Origin: Nitrosopumilus sp.
GTDB lineage: Archaea; Thermoproteota; Nitrososphaeria; Nitrososphaerales; Nitrosopumilaceae
Direction of reading: 5' to 3'
Assembly: GCA_965205425.1 (NCBI GenBank)
Contig: CBDBGZ010000009.1
Coordinates: 480,001-544,000, forward strand
DNA length: 64,000 nucleotides
A program made the translations under genes and the position numbers. Below the pieces are notes generated by a model. That model saw nothing but the letters and a program-made list of their open reading frames with translations. It made no database searches and was not told where the DNA came from. This document shows, in pieces, positions 1 to 12,559 of the stretch. Numbering within the stretch: position 1 is the first letter of the stretch; the number at the start of each line of letters is the position of its first letter.

Positions 1-1
1 T

Positions 2-136
2 ACTATCATCTACATTTGTGGTTATCAGGGAACAATTGATGGAGTAATTGAATACCTAGGATCAAAAGGATTTGTAACTGAACATGAGAAAAAACCTGAT
101 GGAAGTTTTGGCATCAAGTTTGAATCATACGGATAG
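2..136 (+). CDS. 3' fragment of a ferredoxin/flavodoxin-NADP+ reductase-like FAD/NAD(P)-binding oxidoreductase (partial, runs off window start)
   Basis: Manual translation TIIYICGYQGTIDGVIEYLGSKGFVTEHEKKPDGSFGIKFESYG*. The YxCG motif and terminal xFExY are typical of FNR-family C-termini. Confidence 0.65.
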   Translation, partial: TIIYICGYQGTIDGVIEYLGSKGFVTEHEKKPDGSFGIKFESYG

Positions 137-248: not shown

Positions 249-416
249 ATGGCAAAACTCAAGTGTAATGATTATGGGTTTGAGTGTGATTTCATAGTTG
301 ATGGGGAAATGGAGTCAGTTATTAAAGAATTTAGAAAACATACCGATGAAGAACATGGAATAGATTATTCCAAAGAAGCCGTTATGCAATTTCTCTTAAG
401 AAAACAAGGATTATAG
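249..416 (+). CDS. Small metal-binding protein, DUF1059-like (55 aa; below ORF-track cutoff)
   Basis: Manual translation MAKLKCNDYGFECDFIVDGEMESVIKEFRKHTDEEHG... shows the C-x-D-x-G-x-x-C...H-x4-H pattern. An upstream TTTTATA box is present. Confidence 0.75.
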   Translation: MAKLKCNDYGFECDFIVDGEMESVIKEFRKHTDEEHGIDYSKEAVMQFLLRKQGL

Positions 417-421
417 TAAAA

Positions 422-1498
422 TTAAGCATCTAGTCTTTTCATTCTAGCAGACAAAACTGGAAGTTCCTTTTCAATAATTTTCTCTACTGCTGGAACAATT
501 CCTACTCTAGCTTTTACACTTTCTTCATAAAGTTCTGCAATCTGATCTCTGAACAATAATTTTATTCCAGGAAGTGCAGTGATTCCTTCATCAACAGTTC
601 TAGGATCGGATAAATCTAGAACTAGAGTACCTTTCTTCTTTTCTTCCATAATTAATCTAATTCTTTCAAATGTGATTAAGAAATAATCTGAAGTTGTTGC
701 AACAAAAATAATATCATATTTATCAAATCCTGCTAAAACATCATTGAAATCCACAGGAGTTCCTCCAAGAATTGTTGTAAAGCCAGTAGCACGTTCTAAA
801 CTTCTACTAGTGACATCAAATGCAACATCTTTTTTGTTTAGTGTTTTTGCAAGCATTGCTGCAGGCTCACCAGTTCCTATAACAAGTACTTTTTTCTTTG
901 AATCAAGACCTGCTTTTTCATCAACCAGTTTAACTGCGATATCACCTAATGAAATTACATCTTTAGCTATTCCAGTAGTATCTCTCATTCGAATAGCTAA
1001 TCGTATTACACTATCAAATAATTTGTTGAGAATATTTCCAGAAACACCAGCATCTTTTGCATTTGCTAATGACTGAACTATTTCATCAAAGATTTCTTGT
1101 TTTCCAACAACTACAGAATCTAATCCAGATGCCAATCGTAAAAGATGCAAATAAACATCATCACCTTTGTAGACTTCAAGAGTTTGGTCAAAATGGTCTA
1201 TGTCAATTTGTTCTAATGATGACAACGATACCCAAGTATCTTTAATTTGGTTTAACACAAGTGTTTTACCTTCTGCTCTTCTTGCATCAGGAGAATCATC
1301 AGTTTCAACATTGCTTACTGTAAATATTTCAACTCTACTTGCAGTTTGAATAATCATACATTCATCTACACCAGGAATTTTTTTAAATTCTGCACATGCA
1401 GCACCGATATCTTTGAAAGTGAATTTAGACAATGTATGTAATGGTACATTCTTGAATGTGACTCTTGCATTCAATACATCAAATCTAATTTCACCCAA
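422..1498 (-). CDS. Glutamyl-tRNA reductase (HemA)-like paralogue, probably catalytically inactive
   Basis: HLLRLASGLDSVVVG, a Rossmann GTGE motif and DLSDPR are HemA hallmarks. The catalytic TCNR reads TASR and the C-terminal dimerisation domain appears to be missing (358 aa). Confidence 0.85.
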   Translation of the reverse strand: MGEIRFDVLNARVTFKNVPLHTLSKFTFKDIGAACAEFKKIPGVDECMIIQTASRVEIFTVSNVETDDSPDARRAEGKTLVLNQIKDTWVSLSSLEQIDIDHFDQTLEVYKGDDVYLHLLRLASGLDSVVVGKQEIFDEIVQSLANAKDAGVSGNILNKLFDSVIRLAIRMRDTTGIAKDVISLGDIAVKLVDEKAGLDSKKKVLVIGTGEPAAMLAKTLNKKDVAFDVTSRSLERATGFTTILGGTPVDFNDVLAGFDKYDIIFVATTSDYFLITFERIRLIMEEKKKGTLVLDLSDPRTVDEGITALPGIKLLFRDQIAELYEESVKARVGIVPAVEKIIEKELPVLSARMKRLDA

Positions 1499-1509
1499 TC
1501 ATATCACCA

Positions 1510-2232
1510 TTAAGCATTAATTTTGTCACGTCCACCCTTTGCAGTACGGAATACATTCATTCCAATATAGAAATTTTCATGTAATGATTCTAAGTAAATA
1601 ATTTCACGTTCTGTTTCTTTAATTTCTTTTTCAGTTGCATCAGGATTATTTTTTAATTGTTCAAGTTTCTGTTTTGTTTCTTCTAAGAATGAATCAACAC
1701 CGCGTTCATAATTTGATACACCAGCAAATTCAGGACTAAGAACATGCTCAGGAACATATACTGGAGTTTGATCTTGTGGGATTTCAGCAATTCTAGTAAG
1801 TGATTCTTGTTCATCTGCGGAAAGAATTGGTCGTGGAAAACGATCTTGTTTATCTAACCAAAATTCAGGCTCACCCATATCTCGTCTGAAAATTTCTTCA
1901 CCTTGTCTCTTAAACGTATGATCTGATTTAGCTGCGGCATCGGCTTTTACTTCAGCTGCAATTGCCTTGTATTCTTCTTCAGCTGCGGCTTCAGCTTCAG
2001 CTTTAGCTGCTTCTGCTTTTGCAATAGCTTCTTTCACTGCAAGTTCTGCATCTTCAACGGCTTTAGCTGCGGCATCTGCTTTTGATGTTGCTTCTTCAGC
2101 TGCTTTTGCTTCTTCAGCTGCTTTTGTTTCTTCAGCTGCTTTTGCAGTTTCATCTGGAGATGGTTTATCAGATGTTGTTTCTTCAGTAGTTTTTGCTTCT
2201 ACTTCAGATTCTTTTTTCTCTTCAGACAACAA
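1510..2232 (-). CDS. Hypothetical protein with an Ala/Glu/Lys-rich low-complexity helical N-half
   Basis: 240-aa ORF with KAAEE repeats and a TTG start. It ends 11 bp before the HemA-like gene, so the two are probably co-transcribed. Confidence 0.75.
   Translation of the reverse strand: MLSEEKKESEVEAKTTEETTSDKPSPDETAKAAEETKAAEEAKAAEEATSKADAAAKAVEDAELAVKEAIAKAEAAKAEAEAAAEEEYKAIAAEVKADAAAKSDHTFKRQGEEIFRRDMGEPEFWLDKQDRFPRPILSADEQESLTRIAEIPQDQTPVYVPEHVLSPEFAGVSNYERGVDSFLEETKQKLEQLKNNPDATEKEIKETEREIIYLESLHENFYIGMNVFRTAKGGRDKINA
2091..2144. repeat. 18-bp tandem repeat x3 encoding (A/T)KAAEE units
   Basis: cttcttcagctgcttttg / cttcttcagctgcttttg / tttcttcagctgcttttg. Confidence 0.9.
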
Positions 2233-2363: not shown

Positions 2364-2441
2364 TGGCGCCCTCGGCGGGATTTGAACACGCGTCTCAGCC
2401 GTGACAGGGCCGAATTCTAGACCGGGCTATACTACAAGGGC
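2364..2441 (-). tRNA. tRNA-Asp (GTC), CCA encoded
   Basis: Reverse complement GCCCTTG...CGGCC-CTGTCAC-GGCTG...TTCAAAT...CGAGGGC-G-CCA folds into a cloverleaf with one T-stem mismatch. Confidence 0.95.
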
Positions 2442-2662: not shown

Positions 2663-3586
2663 TCATATCTTCTGATTCATTATTTGAAAGACATAAAGAG
2701 ATAGGCCTTGTAGAAACCATGATAAAATAACAAAATCTAATTTTCTAATCCTGTAAGCATTGTATGCAATTAACCTGTACAACATCTCATTGTCCTGAGT
2801 TGTAACATTTCTTGATGTGACATCTCCTGACATTATCTGTTTGATCACAAAAAAGATTGTTTCGGATTTGTTTCTCTGATGGTACAATTGTACAGGAAAG
2901 TTCCTCTTCATCTCCTTTCTATGAATTCCACTGGTTCTGTAAATTGGAACTGTTCCATATCGAGTTGGAATTATTGCAGCTGTGTTGATCTGTTCTGCAC
3001 CAACATGGTTATTCTCATCATCAAAACCCATGTCACCTAACACAATATCAACTGGAACAATATTGTTGGTTTTGTACAACAATGGCAGAAAATCAGGATT
3101 ATCATGTTGCATGTTGTGGTGTGTCATGACACAGCAAACAAGCTGTGTATTCATGTCAGCACAAACAACAACTTTTAGGAAATTCCTGCGTAACTGTACT
3201 CTTTTTGTATAATAGTATGATGCTGTACTGTAACTGAATCCGCTACCATCAATTCCAGCTAGAACCAGTCTGACTTTTTTGTACAAAATGAATTCCTGCA
3301 ACATTTTATGTAACAGATTTCCTTCCAGTCTTGCAGCTGCCTTTTGTAGTGTGGTGTAATGTGGAATGGTATACAAACCAAGATATTCCTGAATTCCTAC
3401 ACATTCTTCTAAAAATTCTGTAAATCTTCTATAACTCTTTGATTCGTACTGTCGTATTGTCAAGAGTATGAGATGTGTCCAAACAGAATAGATATGATTT
3501 GATTTTGGATGTAAGAACCTAGGAATTCTGCATCTGATGATTATATTGAGTAGTGTTTTGCACATTTTGACGTATGATGAGACCAT
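2663..3586 (-). CDS. IS5/IS4-superfamily DDE transposase (DDE_Tnp_1-like)
   Basis: Motifs PHYTTL, IDGSG, GDMGFD and the YREK-type signature Y-x2-R-x3-E-x6-K (YHQRNKSETIFFVIK). Confidence 0.9.
   Translation of the reverse strand: MVSSYVKMCKTLLNIIIRCRIPRFLHPKSNHIYSVWTHLILLTIRQYESKSYRRFTEFLEECVGIQEYLGLYTIPHYTTLQKAAARLEGNLLHKMLQEFILYKKVRLVLAGIDGSGFSYSTASYYYTKRVQLRRNFLKVVVCADMNTQLVCCVMTHHNMQHDNPDFLPLLYKTNNIVPVDIVLGDMGFDDENNHVGAEQINTAAIIPTRYGTVPIYRTSGIHRKEMKRNFPVQLYHQRNKSETIFFVIKQIMSGDVTSRNVTTQDNEMLYRLIAYNAYRIRKLDFVILSWFLQGLSLYVFQIMNQKI
2704..3584 (-). mobile_element. IS5-family-like insertion sequence (~880 bp)
   Basis: Contains a DDE transposase. One end is GGCCTTGTAGAAA at 2704. The termini are GG...CC, flanked by ATA (2701-2703 and 3585-3587). 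The second inverted repeat is weak, so the upper boundary is uncertain (alternative near 3685). Confidence 0.65.
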
Positions 3587-3738: not shown

Positions 3739-4932
3739 CGAGACTATTCTCTCAATGCTATCTTCATCCTAGTTAGGATTGTTCGCAGTTATCAGACGAG
3801 GCCTTGTCCCTCAAAAACTCTAACGCGACTTGCAGTCCTAACTATAATTTTGCACAAATTCTCTCCTCTCCTTTAGCATCCAATATATGACACGCAATAA
3901 CTTTGATGCACCAGCTACTGCAGCTTTGGATGATCCTCTTTTCTTTTTAATGCGATTGTAAAATTTTGTAATGTCGCTATCTGGTGCGTATCTAACATGT
4001 GCATGAATTGCCTCCACTAGCAACCATCTTAGCATGGTGCTTCCTCTCTTTGTAATTCTTCCGTGATGTATTGTATCTGCAGAATTTCTCACCGATGGAA
4101 CAATCCCTGCATATGCACATAACTTGCGAGAATTTGAAAATCTACTAATCTCTGCAATTTCTGAGAATATGCTCAATGCAGTGTATGGTCCAACTCCAGA
4201 TATTGATGTCAAAATACACACGTCAGGATTATCATTTACCATGCGACGTATCATGGAATCTATTTTTGCAACCTCCTTTTTGTGAAATTTTATGCTTTGT
4301 AGGTACGAATCTATTCTATAACTCTCCAATTTTCCAAGTGCACGTATGTGTTCTGAGGAAAATGGTGTTGCTTTGATATGGATTCCCTCCTGTAGTGTAA
4401 TACCATGTATGGAATTCTTCATCTTTACAATGATGCGCACAATCTTGTGTCGATGTCTTACAAGCTGTCTGTATTGCACAATTGTGTGATCTGGCACGAA
4501 TGATTCTGCAATGTATCCTCCTCGTAGCAAATTTGCAAGATGGTACGCATCAATTTTATCAGTCTTTTTGAGTGATGATGCTATTATCTTTGTGTTGTAT
4601 GGATTAGATAGTATAACATCAAGATGTAATTTGTCTGTCATGTGTCTGTACAATCCATACCAGACAGATGATGACTCTAAAACATATTTTGCGTTCTTTG
4701 GAATTTTGGATGTAATTTTGCTAATAGCAGAAAAATCACTGGAAATCTTTTTGTTAAATAATAATTTGCCAATCTCATCTACTGCTGCCACCTGTACAGA
4801 GTTCTTGTGAACATCCAATCCTACAAACATCAAATATTTTTTTTCAGGAAGGGTAGTGTGTTTGTTTGCATTTCTTACTTTCTTGATACGAATGCAAGTA
4901 CCATCTAATTTCCTAGCTGATTTTGGCACATA
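3739..4932 (-). mobile_element. IS110-family element (~1194 bp) bounded by a CATA core repeat
   Basis: CATA occurs at 3735-3738 and 4929-4932. No terminal inverted repeats. Excision restores the host reading frame. Confidence 0.75.
3838..4830 (-). CDS. IS110-family DEDD recombinase/transposase
   Basis: RuvC-like DEDD residues in GLDVHK, VLESS and KTDKIDA. Tnp-domain motifs SISGVGP, AYAGIVPSVRNSAD (catalytic Ser) and GRITKRG. The likely start is ATG at 4830 (MFVGLD), not the track's GTG at 4929. Confidence 0.93.
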   Translation of the reverse strand: MFVGLDVHKNSVQVAAVDEIGKLLFNKKISSDFSAISKITSKIPKNAKYVLESSSVWYGLYRHMTDKLHLDVILSNPYNTKIIASSLKKTDKIDAYHLANLLRGGYIAESFVPDHTIVQYRQLVRHRHKIVRIIVKMKNSIHGITLQEGIHIKATPFSSEHIRALGKLESYRIDSYLQSIKFHKKEVAKIDSMIRRMVNDNPDVCILTSISGVGPYTALSIFSEIAEISRFSNSRKLCAYAGIVPSVRNSADTIHHGRITKRGSTMLRWLLVEAIHAHVRYAPDSDITKFYNRIKKKRGSSKAAVAGASKLLRVIYWMLKERREFVQNYS

Positions 4933-8135: not shown

Positions 8136-10307
8136 TTAATTATCTGGGCAACCGTCTTCATCTTGGAAACCATCATAATCTTCAGGATCAAGTGGACATA
8201 GATCCTCATCATTGATAATATCGTCTAAATCATCATCGTGAACAAATCTCTGTTGTTCTGGAGCAGTGTCAGGGCAACCGTCATGATCATTGTATTTGTT
8301 CCAGGTTTCAGAGTTTGTTGGACAAGCATCAATAGCATCATAATATCCGTCACCGTCAGTATCAGGTCTTGTAGGAGTTGTAGACTCTGCTGCTAACACA
8401 TCTGGGCAACCATCCCAATCAAGATATCCATTAAAGTTCTCTTGTTCATCTAGACATACATCTTTTCTATCATCTATTCCATCACCGTCAATATCTGCAA
8501 ATAAGTAAGATGAGGCAACAGTGGTGGTAGAATCAGGACAACCGTCTTCATCTTGATAGAAATTATAAGTTTCAGGTTCTAATGGACATGCATCAGAGAT
8601 ATCAACAATTCCATCTTGATCAGAATCGGTTGTAAAAACTAGTTTATCTGGACAGCCATCTTTATCTTGGAAACCATTGAATGTTTCAGGTTGAGCAGGA
8701 CAAGAATCTGAAATATCAGGAATTCCATCACCGTCAGAATCTACTGTGAGTTTGTTATCAGGAATTAGATCTGGACAACCGTCAGAATCTAGATATCTAT
8801 TGTAAGTCTCCCTAGCATTTGGACATTGATCAACATTATCGGTAACACCATCAAAATCAGCATCACCAAATGAATCATATGCTAAAGTGTCTGGGCAACC
8901 ATCATCATCTTGGAAACCATTGTATCTTTCAGCTAGTGTAGGACATGAATCATATTCATCTGGGATGCTATCATAATCAGAGTCAGGTAAAGCAGATTTT
9001 GAAAATCCTGCAATGTCAGGACAACCGTCAGTATCTAAGAAATCGTTATAATTTTCTGGTTCATCAATACATTGATCCCATCTATCATCAATTCCGTCAC
9101 CATCAACATCTGGAAATACGTAAGAGGAAACAATAGAACCAGATGAATCGGGACAACCATCACCATCTTTAAAGAAATTATAAGTTTCAGGTTCTAACGG
9201 ACATGCATCAGAGATATTTAAAATTCCATCTTGATCAGAGTCTAAAAGAGAATCATAACTGTCTGGGCAACCATCAGAATCTTGGAATCCATTATACGTT
9301 TCTGGTTGGTTTGGACATAAATCTAGATTATCAACAATTCTGTCACCATCTGAATCATATGTAACAGAATTGTCTGCTACTAAATCAGGGCAACCATCAT
9401 CGTCTTGGAATAAATTGTAAGTTTCTTTGGAATAAGGACATACATCAAATTGATTTAAAATTCCATCACCGTCAGAATCACCAGTTATTGAAAATTCAAT
9501 TTCATCTGGACAGCCATCATCATCTTGGAATTTGTTAAAATTTTCACGTTCCAGCGGACAGGCATCTACAGAATCAAGAATACTATCATAATCAGAGTCA
9601 ATCAAGCCATCAGAATCTGCACCGAGTGTATCAGTACAACCGTCCCAATCTAAGAAACCATTATAATTTTCAGGCTCATTTAGACATTGATCCCATCTAT
9701 CATCAATTCCGTCACCGTCAGTATCAGGAAATACGTAAGATGAATCAACTGAATCAACATTATCAGGACAACCATCAGAATCTAAGTAAAAGTTGTAAGT
9801 TTCAGGTTCTAATGGACATGCATCTACAGAATCAGAAATTCCATCTTGATCATTGTCTCTCAATGTAGAATCATCATCAGGACAACCGTCTTTGTCATCA
9901 ATTCCATTGAATGTTTCTGGTTGGTTTGGACATAAATCCATGAAATCTGGATAACCGTCACCGTCAGTATCAGCAATTCCATCTGAACCTTCAGGGGATA
10001 AATCTGGACAACCATCATCATCTTGGAATTTATTGTAATTTTCTTTTACAGTTGGACAGTTATCTATATGATCTTGAATTCCATCATAATCAGCATCATA
10101 CCATGGGACAAAGTCTGCTGGACAACCATCTATGTTGTTACCATATTCTGAATCATAATCTTCTAAGAGATGAGGACAAAAATCAAGATTATTTGGAACT
10201 CCATCATTATCAGAGTCAATTTCCTCATTAGCAAATACACTACTTGGCATCATGCCAATAGTTGATGTTAGTAAAAGTAAAAATCCTAAAAGATATTGTT
10301 TTTTCAT
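8136..10307 (-). CDS. Secreted thrombospondin type-3 (TSP3) repeat Ca2+-binding protein 1
   Basis: Signal peptide MKKQYLLGFLLLL (start 10307, GGAG upstream) and ~17 units of DxDxDG...CP...E...N...DxDGCPD. Confidence 0.9.
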   Translation of the reverse strand: MKKQYLLGFLLLLTSTIGMMPSSVFANEEIDSDNDGVPNNLDFCPHLLEDYDSEYGNNIDGCPADFVPWYDADYDGIQDHIDNCPTVKENYNKFQDDDGCPDLSPEGSDGIADTDGDGYPDFMDLCPNQPETFNGIDDKDGCPDDDSTLRDNDQDGISDSVDACPLEPETYNFYLDSDGCPDNVDSVDSSYVFPDTDGDGIDDRWDQCLNEPENYNGFLDWDGCTDTLGADSDGLIDSDYDSILDSVDACPLERENFNKFQDDDGCPDEIEFSITGDSDGDGILNQFDVCPYSKETYNLFQDDDGCPDLVADNSVTYDSDGDRIVDNLDLCPNQPETYNGFQDSDGCPDSYDSLLDSDQDGILNISDACPLEPETYNFFKDGDGCPDSSGSIVSSYVFPDVDGDGIDDRWDQCIDEPENYNDFLDTDGCPDIAGFSKSALPDSDYDSIPDEYDSCPTLAERYNGFQDDDGCPDTLAYDSFGDADFDGVTDNVDQCPNARETYNRYLDSDGCPDLIPDNKLTVDSDGDGIPDISDSCPAQPETFNGFQDKDGCPDKLVFTTDSDQDGIVDISDACPLEPETYNFYQDEDGCPDSTTTVASSYLFADIDGDGIDDRKDVCLDEQENFNGYLDWDGCPDVLAAESTTPTRPDTDGDGYYDAIDACPTNSETWNKYNDHDGCPDTAPEQQRFVHDDDLDDIINDEDLCPLDPEDYDGFQDEDGCPDN

Positions 10308-10390
10308 TCTCTCTGACTCCGCTATTATCAAGTATTTATTAAGTCTCACGTTAAATAGATTCTTTTAAAATTAAAAACTAGCCAATCCGG

Positions 10391-12559
10391 TTATGGATCT
10401 GGACAACCATCTAAATCTCGGTCACCATCATAATCTTCAGGATCAAGTGGACATAGATCCTCATCATTGATGATATCGTCTAAATCATCATCGTGAACAA
10501 ATCTCTGTTGTTCTGGAGCAGTATCAGGGCAACCGTCCCAATCTAGGTATTTGTTCCAAGTTTCTGGGCTTGTTGGACAAGAGTCAGTCACGTCTGGATA
10601 TCCATCAGCATCAGAATCAGCGTACATTGGAGTAGTGGATTCTGCACCTGGAATATCTGGACAACCATCTCTATCTAGATAATCATTGAAATTTTCTGGT
10701 TCATCAATACATTGATCCCATCTATCTTCAATTCCATCACCGTCAGTATCTGGGAATTGGTATTGTGGATTAACTGAATCTGCAGAGTCTGGACAACCGT
10801 CAGAATCTAGATACATGTTGTAAGTTTCAGGTTCTAATGGACACATATCAAATACATCTGGAATACCATCACTGTCAGAATCTAAGTATGATGTAAGTTT
10901 ATCTGGACAGCCGTCATCATCTAACAAACCATTGTAAGTTTCAGGTTGATTTGGACATGAATCAAGAATATCTGGAATACCATCACCGTCAGAATCAGCA
11001 GTCATTTTATTATCAGCAATGTAATCTGGACAACCGTCAGAATCTAGATACATGTTGTAAGTTTCTTTTGATAGAGGACATTGATCTAAATCATCAAAGA
11101 TTCCATCACCGTCAGAATCACCAATAGTCTGATAATCAATACCATCAGGACAACCGTCTTCATCTTGGAATTTATTGTATCTTTCAGCTAATGTTGGACA
11201 TTGATCTAAATGATCTGCCAAACCATCATAATCAGAATCAATCATATCACCAGCAGTTGTTCCTTTAATGTCTGGACAACCGTCCCAATCTAGATAATCA
11301 TTGAAATTTTCTGGTTCATCAATACATTGATCCCATCTATCTTCAATTCCATCACCGTCAGTGTCTGGAAAAGTGTAAATTGAATCCATTACATCAACAT
11401 TATCTGGGCAACCGTCAGAATCTAGATACATGTTGTAAGTTTCACGTTCTAGTGGACATGCATCTAAATAATCAGGAATACCATCAAAGTCTTTGTCAGA
11501 TGTAGAGTTATTATCTGGACAACCATCTTTATCTAAAATACCATTGTAAGTTTCAGGTTGGTTTGGACAATGATCTAAGTTATCAATAATACCGTCACCG
11601 TCAGTATCAAAAGCAAATTTGTTATCTGCTACATAGTCAGGACAGCCATCTTGATCATTAACCATGTTGTAAGTTTCAGGACTAAATGGACAAGAATCTA
11701 AGGTATCTGGAATACCGTCACCATCAGCATCACCAGTAAATGTAAATTGTAATTCATCAGGGCAACCATCTTCATCTTGGAATTTATTGTAATTTTCACG
11801 ATCAAGTGGACAATCATCCATGTCATCAGGAATTCCATCATAATCAGCGTCTGGAGCTTCTAATGAAGTAGTGCCTGGAACATCAGGACAACCGTCCCAA
11901 TCTAGATAATCATTGAAATTTTCTGGTTCATCAATACATTGATCCCATCTATCTTCAATTCCATCACCATCAGTATCTGGGAATTGGTATTGTGGATTAA
12001 CTGAATCTGCAGAGTCTGGACAACCGTCAGAATCTAGATACATGTTGTAAGTTTCAGGTTCTAAGGGACATGCATCCAAAGAATCAGAAATTCCATCTTG
12101 ATCAGAATCTTTGTGAGTTATATCATCATCAGGGCAACCGTCTTTGTCATCAATTCCATTGAATGTTTCTGGTTGGTTTGGACATAAATCCATAAAATCT
12201 GGATAACCGTCACCGTCAGTATCAGCAATTCCTTGTGTACCTTCAGGTGTCAAGTCTGGACAACCGTCTTGATCTTGGAATCTATTGTAAGTTTCTTTTA
12301 CAGTTGGACAGTTATCTATATGATCTTGAATTCCATCATAATCAGCATCATACCATGGGACAAAGTCTGCTGGACAACCATCTATGTTGTTACCATATTC
12401 TGGATCATAATCTTCTAAGAGATTTGGACATTGATCCAGATTGTTTGGTACTCCGTCACCGTCATTATCAATTTCTTCATTGGCAAATGCGCTACTTGGC
12501 ATCATACCAATAGTTGATGTTAGTAAAAGTAAAAATCCTAAAAGATATTGTTTTTTCAT
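10391..12559 (-). CDS. Secreted TSP3-repeat protein 2
   Basis: Near-identical signal peptide to protein 1 and ~17 repeat units. Confidence 0.9.
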   Translation of the reverse strand: MKKQYLLGFLLLLTSTIGMMPSSAFANEEIDNDGDGVPNNLDQCPNLLEDYDPEYGNNIDGCPADFVPWYDADYDGIQDHIDNCPTVKETYNRFQDQDGCPDLTPEGTQGIADTDGDGYPDFMDLCPNQPETFNGIDDKDGCPDDDITHKDSDQDGISDSLDACPLEPETYNMYLDSDGCPDSADSVNPQYQFPDTDGDGIEDRWDQCIDEPENFNDYLDWDGCPDVPGTTSLEAPDADYDGIPDDMDDCPLDRENYNKFQDEDGCPDELQFTFTGDADGDGIPDTLDSCPFSPETYNMVNDQDGCPDYVADNKFAFDTDGDGIIDNLDHCPNQPETYNGILDKDGCPDNNSTSDKDFDGIPDYLDACPLERETYNMYLDSDGCPDNVDVMDSIYTFPDTDGDGIEDRWDQCIDEPENFNDYLDWDGCPDIKGTTAGDMIDSDYDGLADHLDQCPTLAERYNKFQDEDGCPDGIDYQTIGDSDGDGIFDDLDQCPLSKETYNMYLDSDGCPDYIADNKMTADSDGDGIPDILDSCPNQPETYNGLLDDDGCPDKLTSYLDSDSDGIPDVFDMCPLEPETYNMYLDSDGCPDSADSVNPQYQFPDTDGDGIEDRWDQCIDEPENFNDYLDRDGCPDIPGAESTTPMYADSDADGYPDVTDSCPTSPETWNKYLDWDGCPDTAPEQQRFVHDDDLDDIINDEDLCPLDPEDYDGDRDLDGCPDP

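Follow-up and report, generated by a model that had tools for sequence, protein, structure and literature searches.

The gene annotated as a glutamyl-tRNA reductase (GluTR) near the start of the window (the whole 64,000-nucleotide stretch of Nitrosopumilus DNA analyzed in this study) encodes, on the evidence of its sequence, a pseudoenzyme, designated HemA2, which arose by one hemA duplication inside Nitrosopumilaceae. Comparison with orthologues and with the canonical enzyme showed that HemA2 has lost its nucleophile and pocket residues, has an intact dinucleotide site, has gained two motifs and is under purifying selection, and comparison of loci showed that HemA2 and the long form of its neighbor, protein X, have been passed on and relocated together as a single unit. 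With the fold kept, the catalytic residues lost, purifying selection acting and an active paralogue present in the genome, HemA2-X is a real, conserved pseudoenzyme-partner module that is mis-annotated, as public databases label HemA2 glutamyl-tRNA reductase.

The hemA2 gene (422–1498, minus strand; TTG start) was recognized as encoding a 358-aa, Cys-less GluTR paralogue from its ORF, motif reading, Pfam matches and a structural model. Its product consists of a catalytic domain, an NADP(H)-binding Rossmann domain and a spinal helix, without the dimerization domain. The Pfam families GlutR_N and Shikimate_DH (PF01488, 69 bits) both scored above their cut-offs, no Pfam match to the dimerization domain was found in the 358 residues, and the TIGR01035 score of 188.3 bits fell below the equivalog cut-off of 209.55. 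An AlphaFold2 model built on a 60-row alignment had a mean pLDDT of 89.6, and its best seven fold matches were all GluTR chains. The Pfam results, the model and the invariant dinucleotide site described below agree with the initial annotation, according to which the protein ends at 358 aa without a dimerization tail and has an intact Rossmann fold.

The Ala53 codon (1340–1342, minus strand), located by motif reading and alignment, lies in the column of the thioester-forming Cys, and the surrounding motif reads QTASRVE versus QTCNRIE in the canonical HemA of the same genome. In an alignment of 63 HemA2 rows with 37 canonical HemA rows, this column contained Cys in all canonical rows and in none of the HemA2 rows, where seven different replacements were found (Ala in 42 rows, Ser in eight, Pro in four, Thr in three, Asn in two, Gln in two and Gly in one, with one gap). 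Cys48 of the Methanopyrus kandleri GluTR is described as the nucleophile and as conserved throughout GluTRs in the accessible part of PMC3778395. Contigs from two of four sequencing runs compared (X2, 701–1667; X5, 1294–1464) cover the Ala53 codon without difference; X2 may be the source sample. Since the contigs of two runs agree at this codon and none of the 63 orthologues has the Cys, its loss is not a sequencing error. The initial reading of TASR for TCNR is thus confirmed, and neither strain-specific decay nor sequence error, which had been named as grounds for rejecting it, was borne out.

The glutamate-binding motif is degenerate, as had also been noted initially, and reads GKQEIFDEI (residues 132–140; 1079–1105, minus strand) where the canonical HemA of the genome has GEEQILGQI. 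Glu114 and Gln116 (in the numbering of the genome's HemA), which we take to be glutamate-pocket residues, are invariant in the 37 canonical rows and retained in none of the 63 HemA2 rows, in which the former column holds Lys, Arg, Asn, Trp, Ser, Asp or Thr and the latter Glu, Ser, Lys, Gly and others. Arg54, Glu56 and Ser109 (same numbering) are retained in HemA2, and His99 in 36 of the 63 rows; the roles of these four residues are likewise assumed. In the numbering of HemA2, Arg55 and Glu57 are kept in 62 of 63 rows and Ser128 in 61 of 63. The free variation at the pocket positions is better explained by an inactivated pocket than by one that has been re-built. HemA2 may accordingly be regarded as inactive in the canonical reaction, while a Cys-independent reaction may be possible.

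The Rossmann dinucleotide-binding domain (545–919, minus strand), recognized by its invariant residues, was found to be as conserved at its dinucleotide site as in the canonical enzyme. G208-T209-G210, S231, R236, A267-T268-T269, D295, S297, P299 and R300 are present in all 63 HemA2 rows, with the exception to this conservation at residue 232 (Arg in 27 rows, Met in 22, Lys in 12 and Leu in two), where an Arg would presumably contact the 2'-phosphate. Two features are specific to HemA2. An insertion of about 15 residues (1271–1315, minus strand; alignment and model) with a conserved PDxRR, in which Asp71 occurs in 61 and Arg73 in 60 of the 63 rows, is absent from the 37 canonical rows; it is disordered in the model of HemA2 alone (pLDDT below 50 at residues 65–74) and is a candidate partner-binding segment. 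The DHFDQ motif (residues 101–105; 1184–1198, minus strand), identified by alignment, has His102, Asp104 and Gln105 in all 63 rows and is not conserved in canonical HemA. Further invariants of HemA2's own are Asp271 and Phe316-Arg317, and 41 columns are invariant across 60 rows. In the earliest-branching rows (L055:3444-4547 and L069:3476-4600), the sequence around residue 316 is like that of canonical HemA, which may be a result of gene conversion from hemA. Of the dimerization domain, 54–66 residues remain in 21 of the 63 proteins; 41 end at the spinal helix, another carries an internal deletion, and the last helix is missing from all 63.

A canonical hemA, which the initial annotation had proposed to look for, was found elsewhere in the genome, where it encodes 423 aa and lies in the heme cluster, flanked by hemB and a precorrin-2 dehydrogenase-like gene. 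HemA2 is 45–47% identical to the genome's own HemA, and hemA2 was outside the hem cluster in all loci read. The source genome contains two near-identical copies of the canonical hemA-hemB cluster (G000:C5:25170-26180 and G000:C4:235921-236931), which, given an assembly contamination of 5.2%, more likely stem from a mixture of strains than from duplication.

HemA2 was detected in all 24 congeners (in one only in part) and in 96 of 151 Nitrosopumilaceae genomes, and was missing from the other 55. In other families of the order, 11 of 16 genomes gave matches, and the five of these loci that were read contained only the Cys-bearing form; sampled genomes of the Nitrososphaeraceae and Nitrosocaldaceae types yielded canonical HemA only. 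A quick maximum-likelihood analysis was run on 84 rows, with 16 of the 23 HemA2 rows from Nitrosopumilus omitted. In the resulting tree, the 47 HemA2 rows formed a single clade (SH-aLRT 100) nested among the canonical HemA proteins of Nitrosopumilaceae, indicating one hemA duplication inside this family. The dimerization domain was lost about six times on the HemA tree. The dN/dS of hemA2, calculated by the Nei-Gojobori method for 208 of the 253 pairs among 23 Nitrosopumilus rows (pairs with dS outside 0.05–1.5 were dropped), had a median of 0.13 and a range of 0.05–0.28, which corresponds to purifying selection, and in two matched genome pairs it was 0.044 for hemA2 versus 0.016 for canonical hemA and 0.124 versus 0.096.

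Gene X (long form, 1510–2232, minus strand) encodes a 240-aa protein of an uncharacterized family confined to ammonia-oxidizing archaea, as determined from its ORF and by profile searches. It ends 11 bp upstream of hemA2 on the same strand, exactly as first described, and, judging solely from this spacing, the two genes are inferred to be co-transcribed. The description of X as an Ala/Glu-rich protein holds for its first 100 or so residues (1936–2232, minus strand), a variable, Ala/Glu/Lys-rich, low-complexity region differing in length and sequence among orthologues, and does not hold for the conserved last 140 or so. The conserved part comprises the long-form motif IFRRxMGEPEF...PxPxL (1822–1920, minus strand), found in all 96 genomes with hemA2 and in none of the 55 without it, and an ancient core (1513–1764, minus strand), a helical hairpin ending in GMNVFRTAKGGR; the short form of X usually precedes the carboxyltransferase gene. 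In every one of the 64 hemA2 loci, which represent about six distinct neighborhoods, X is the gene directly upstream of hemA2 and has the same orientation. The conservation of the gene pair, together with the single HemA2 clade and the median dN/dS, supports the initial proposal of a conserved pseudoenzyme under selection and paired with its upstream gene.

A profile of the conserved C-terminal part detected X in 148 of the 151 Nitrosopumilaceae genomes and in all six genomes of two other ammonia-oxidizer families, while in 41 other members of the class it gave just two weak matches, to long unrelated frames. Long X was detected in all 96 genomes with hemA2 and in none of the other 55; long forms had been used to build the profile, but the IFRRxMGEPEF motif was absent from all 26 short forms read. 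Adjacency and common descent inflate this agreement. Still informative are five hemA2-bearing genomes of the Nitrosotenuis group, in which the long form adjoins hemA2 and the short form adjoins pccB; their congeners without hemA2 have short X only. Searches of Pfam, NCBIfam, PDB sequences and a protein atlas returned no family match for X, just coiled-coil noise and unnamed Nitrososphaerota clusters, and PF13822, the carboxylase epsilon subunit, had no match in the genome or among the members of X. No coherent signal of covariation between HemA2 and X was obtained from 73 pairs (effective number 41), and the correlation between their trees (r 0.88) is accounted for by shared ancestry. A search for HemA2-X fusions among 203 candidate proteins of 421–2000 aa gave two matches, both single-record and with the appearance of assembly chimeras.

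The pccB-accC-accB genes, which encode a carboxyltransferase, a biotin carboxylase and a biotin carrier, lie about 4.4 kb to the left of the window start. The window itself begins with the 3' end (1–136, plus strand) of a ferredoxin-NADP-reductase-like (FNR) gene, whose whole product has 280 aa, followed by a gene (249–416, plus strand) for a 55-aa DUF1059 protein with Cys/His motifs, which is convergent with hemA2 and occurs in many hemA2 loci. An FNR gene flanks the X-hemA2 pair in most loci and is not adjacent in G165 and G189. Coordinates were listed for 55 family genomes with short X: in 42 of these it ends at most 150 bp before the pccB start, six others have it further off, six have it on a different contig and one has no pccB entry. 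In two other ammonia-oxidizer families short X was beside pccB in all six loci. X is part of a conserved block together with the genes for an RFC-like AAA ATPase, a 371-aa protein and a small Cys-rich protein, and it is possible that the location of X before pccB simply reflects its position in this block. In all three ammonia-oxidizer families read, the gene for the 371-aa protein (L119:5163-6278, some 1.7 kb to the left of the window), which has no Pfam match, is a conserved neighbor of the RFC-like gene and the carboxylase operon. Non-ammonia-oxidizing relatives have pccB-accC-accB without X (four loci, L175–L178, of 15 read), and X is therefore no subunit of these carboxylases in general.

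Long X is away from the acc operon in many genera. In G189 long X, hemA2, pccB and accC are contiguous on one strand, the gaps measuring 11 and 55 bp, and the order in G041, G144 and G054 is X-hemA2-FNR-pccB. These orders suggest that, most simply, hemA2 landed behind X in the carboxylase operon and that the pair was later relocated several times. A frameshifted remnant of short X was observed at the ancestral site before pccB in G086 (L157:1678-1917), which has a long X-hemA2 pair elsewhere. In the window, a tRNA-Asp gene (2364–2441, minus strand) is located just upstream of X and is followed by two ORFs (2663–3586 and 3838–4929) that we take to be transposase-like; two tandem genes farther along (8136–10349 and 10391–12559, minus strand) encode secreted proteins of about 730 aa with DxDxDG..D..D.CP repeats, presumably of the thrombospondin type-3-like kind.

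Published proteomic data for N. maritimus provided an estimate of HemA2 abundance. Nmar_0265, labeled glutamyl-tRNA reductase in PMC12974425, is likely the HemA2 orthologue, an assignment made by gene order (DUF59 Nmar_0262, inositol monophosphatase Nmar_0268 and pccB Nmar_0272) and not by sequence. In the accessible tables of that study, its spectral counts were 72–79 at 23°C, 63–71 at 27°C and 47–56 at 32°C, those of the true HemA (Nmar_0510) were 6 at 27°C and 10–18 at 32°C, and those of PccB, AccC and the biotin carrier at 27°C were 169–182, 196–223 and 29–35, respectively. By these counts the excess of HemA2 over HemA is approximately 11-fold at 27°C and about 4- to 11-fold overall, and the counts per residue, based on the protein lengths in the genome studied here, are about 0.19 for HemA2, 0.014 for HemA and 0.19–0.43 for the carboxylase subunits. 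From 23 to 32°C HemA2 decreased while PccB and AccC slightly increased, which argues against a fixed stoichiometry, i.e. against HemA2 as a fixed subunit of the carboxylase; HemA and HemB also increased with temperature (PMC12974425). There was no entry for Nmar_0264, at the position of X, in the tables searched of PMC12974425, which cover selected proteins, nor for NVIE_013690, which precedes accB in N. viennensis and is probably a short X, in the quantified table of PMC12542715.

The explanation that we tentatively favor, although we would place it somewhat short of an even chance, is that HemA2 is an NADP(H)-binding pseudoenzyme that is bound to long X and tunes the carboxylase. HemA2 and long X would form a stable complex via the new motifs that appeared together in them, long X would tether HemA2 to the acetyl/propionyl-CoA carboxylase of the 3-hydroxypropionate/4-hydroxybutyrate (3HP/4HB) cycle, and HemA2 would serve as an NADPH/NADP+-binding regulatory module matching carboxylation to the supply of reductant. 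The 3HP/4HB steps after carboxylation use NADPH, and this consumption, together with the FNR gene that travels with the pair, suggested the coupling to reductant. The ancestral context of X before pccB points to the carboxylase instead of to regulation of the true HemA, which had been proposed initially and is not favored here. A related possibility, that HemA2 and X form a complex unrelated to the carboxylase and bind NADP(H) as the scaffold or sensor of another process, involving, e.g., the FNR or the products of the RFC-like and 371-aa genes, appears rather unlikely. It would accommodate the FNR gene flanking the pair in most loci, the number of FNR matches in Nitrosotenuis-group genomes (mostly three with hemA2 versus two without) and the frequent distance of the pair from pccB, but not the persistence of short X before pccB across three families, nor the pairs of G165 and G189 without an adjacent FNR gene. 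HemA2 might also regulate the tetrapyrrole (cobalamin/heme) flux by forming a heterodimer with HemA, competing for HemL or sequestering Glu-tRNA, which we consider unlikely. Dead paralogues often control their active kin in the systems described in the accessible literature, most of the dimerization domain persists in 21 of 63 HemA2 rows, 47 of 63 have an Arg matching Arg300 of M. kandleri, a proposed tRNA-stem contact in the accessible part of PMC6399207, and the opposite temperature trends of HemA2 and of HemA and HemB could reflect such control. The location outside the hem cluster, the repeated losses of the dimerization domain with its last helix gone throughout, and the excess of HemA2 over HemA in the accessible counts argue against it, and the tie to X would be left unexplained. 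A decaying or neutral duplicate, to which the truncation, the lost catalytic residues and the dN/dS above that of canonical hemA in both matched pairs could point, is effectively refuted by the presence of HemA2 in every congener and in 96 family genomes, its 41 invariant columns, a dN/dS far below 1 and the abundance of the protein in the accessible counts.

Alternatively, HemA2 could be a Cys-independent, NADPH-dependent acyl-CoA reductase that converts malonyl- or succinyl-CoA to the semialdehyde and is docked on the carboxylase by X, which seems quite doubtful. A CoA thioester substrate needs no enzyme thioester, the Arg presumed to bind the carboxylate is kept while the Glu presumed to bind the amino group is lost, the retention of Arg55, Glu57 and Ser128 is nearly complete, hemA2 is inside the acc operon in G189, and the abundance in the accessible counts resembles that of cycle enzymes. 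Such a reductase would fill a gap in the N. maritimus cycle, as the malonyl- and succinyl-CoA reductases are given as unidentified in the accessible part of PMC6038301, and a 2025 table lists Asd for malonyl-CoA reduction as "lacking strong evidence" (PMC12542715, accessible part). However, Asd is a standing candidate for this step, 55 of 151 family genomes lack HemA2 and sampled Nitrososphaeraceae- and Nitrosocaldaceae-type genomes yielded only canonical HemA, although genomes of these kinds possess the carboxylase, and the pocket residues differ as widely as Ala and Pro or Lys and Trp. Furthermore, no replacement enzyme was found in G069, a hemA2-less genome (93% complete), when its ORFs of at least 100 aa were compared with the source genome: among 832 ORFs, 19 had no match and 18 a weak one, and the sole oxidoreductase among the 22 of these 37 that were scanned occurs in hemA2-positive and hemA2-negative genera alike. 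No match to an aldehyde dehydrogenase was found in G069 at this completeness. The genome is reduced (about 0.84 Mb), encodes 4-hydroxybutyryl-CoA dehydratase and two Fe-ADHs besides the carboxylase, and is of use for narrowing down candidates for the missing reductases of the cycle; its small contig C1 resembles mitochondrial DNA. The extended form, in which HemA2 was re-purposed as a Cys-independent acyl-CoA reductase within a carboxylase-reductase metabolon, appears improbable; if true, it would supply or supplement the long-missing malonyl-CoA reductase step of marine ammonia-oxidizing archaea.

Nitrosopumilaceae are among the main CO2 fixers of the dark ocean, and the regulation of the 3HP/4HB cycle and the enzyme that reduces malonyl-CoA are standing questions. 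The present results offer X as a candidate accessory protein of the carboxylase and HemA2 as a candidate redox-sensing module of X, or a reductase, and they suggest that an abundant protein filed as an ordinary glutamyl-tRNA reductase cannot run the canonical reaction. Two orthologue groups are both labeled hemA in the accessible part of PMC6593220, and relabeling HemA2 removes an annotation error that would otherwise raise the number of hemA genes counted in surveys of the B12 pathway. No description of a Cys-less HemA paralogue or of X was found in the full-text literature searched, which for the most part excludes subscription papers.

In conclusion, HemA2 resembles HemA/GluTR (TIGR01035; PDB 1gpj, 4n7r and 5yjl) in its catalytic-domain and Rossmann folds and its spinal helix, and differs from it in lacking the Cys, Glu114 and Gln116, in its partial or absent dimerization domain, in its new insertion and DHFDQ motif, and in being encoded outside the hem cluster. 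Like the trypanosomatid prozyme and the deoxyhypusine synthase paralogue, it is a dead copy that has been conserved alongside an active paralogue; in the sources accessible for these systems, the prozyme and the deoxyhypusine synthase paralogue activate their own active paralogues, whereas the evidence for HemA2 points to a different partner. Accessory proteins and regulators of biotin carboxylases include the actinobacterial epsilon subunit (PF13822), the haloarchaeal PccX, the plant BADC proteins and PII, and we know of none that recruits a GluTR-derived domain. X differs from the epsilon subunit in having no PF13822 match and shares with it, in its short form, gene adjacency to the carboxyltransferase. 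The likeness to these systems lies in a small protein encoded beside the carboxyltransferase and in the proposed control of the carboxylase by a non-catalytic partner.
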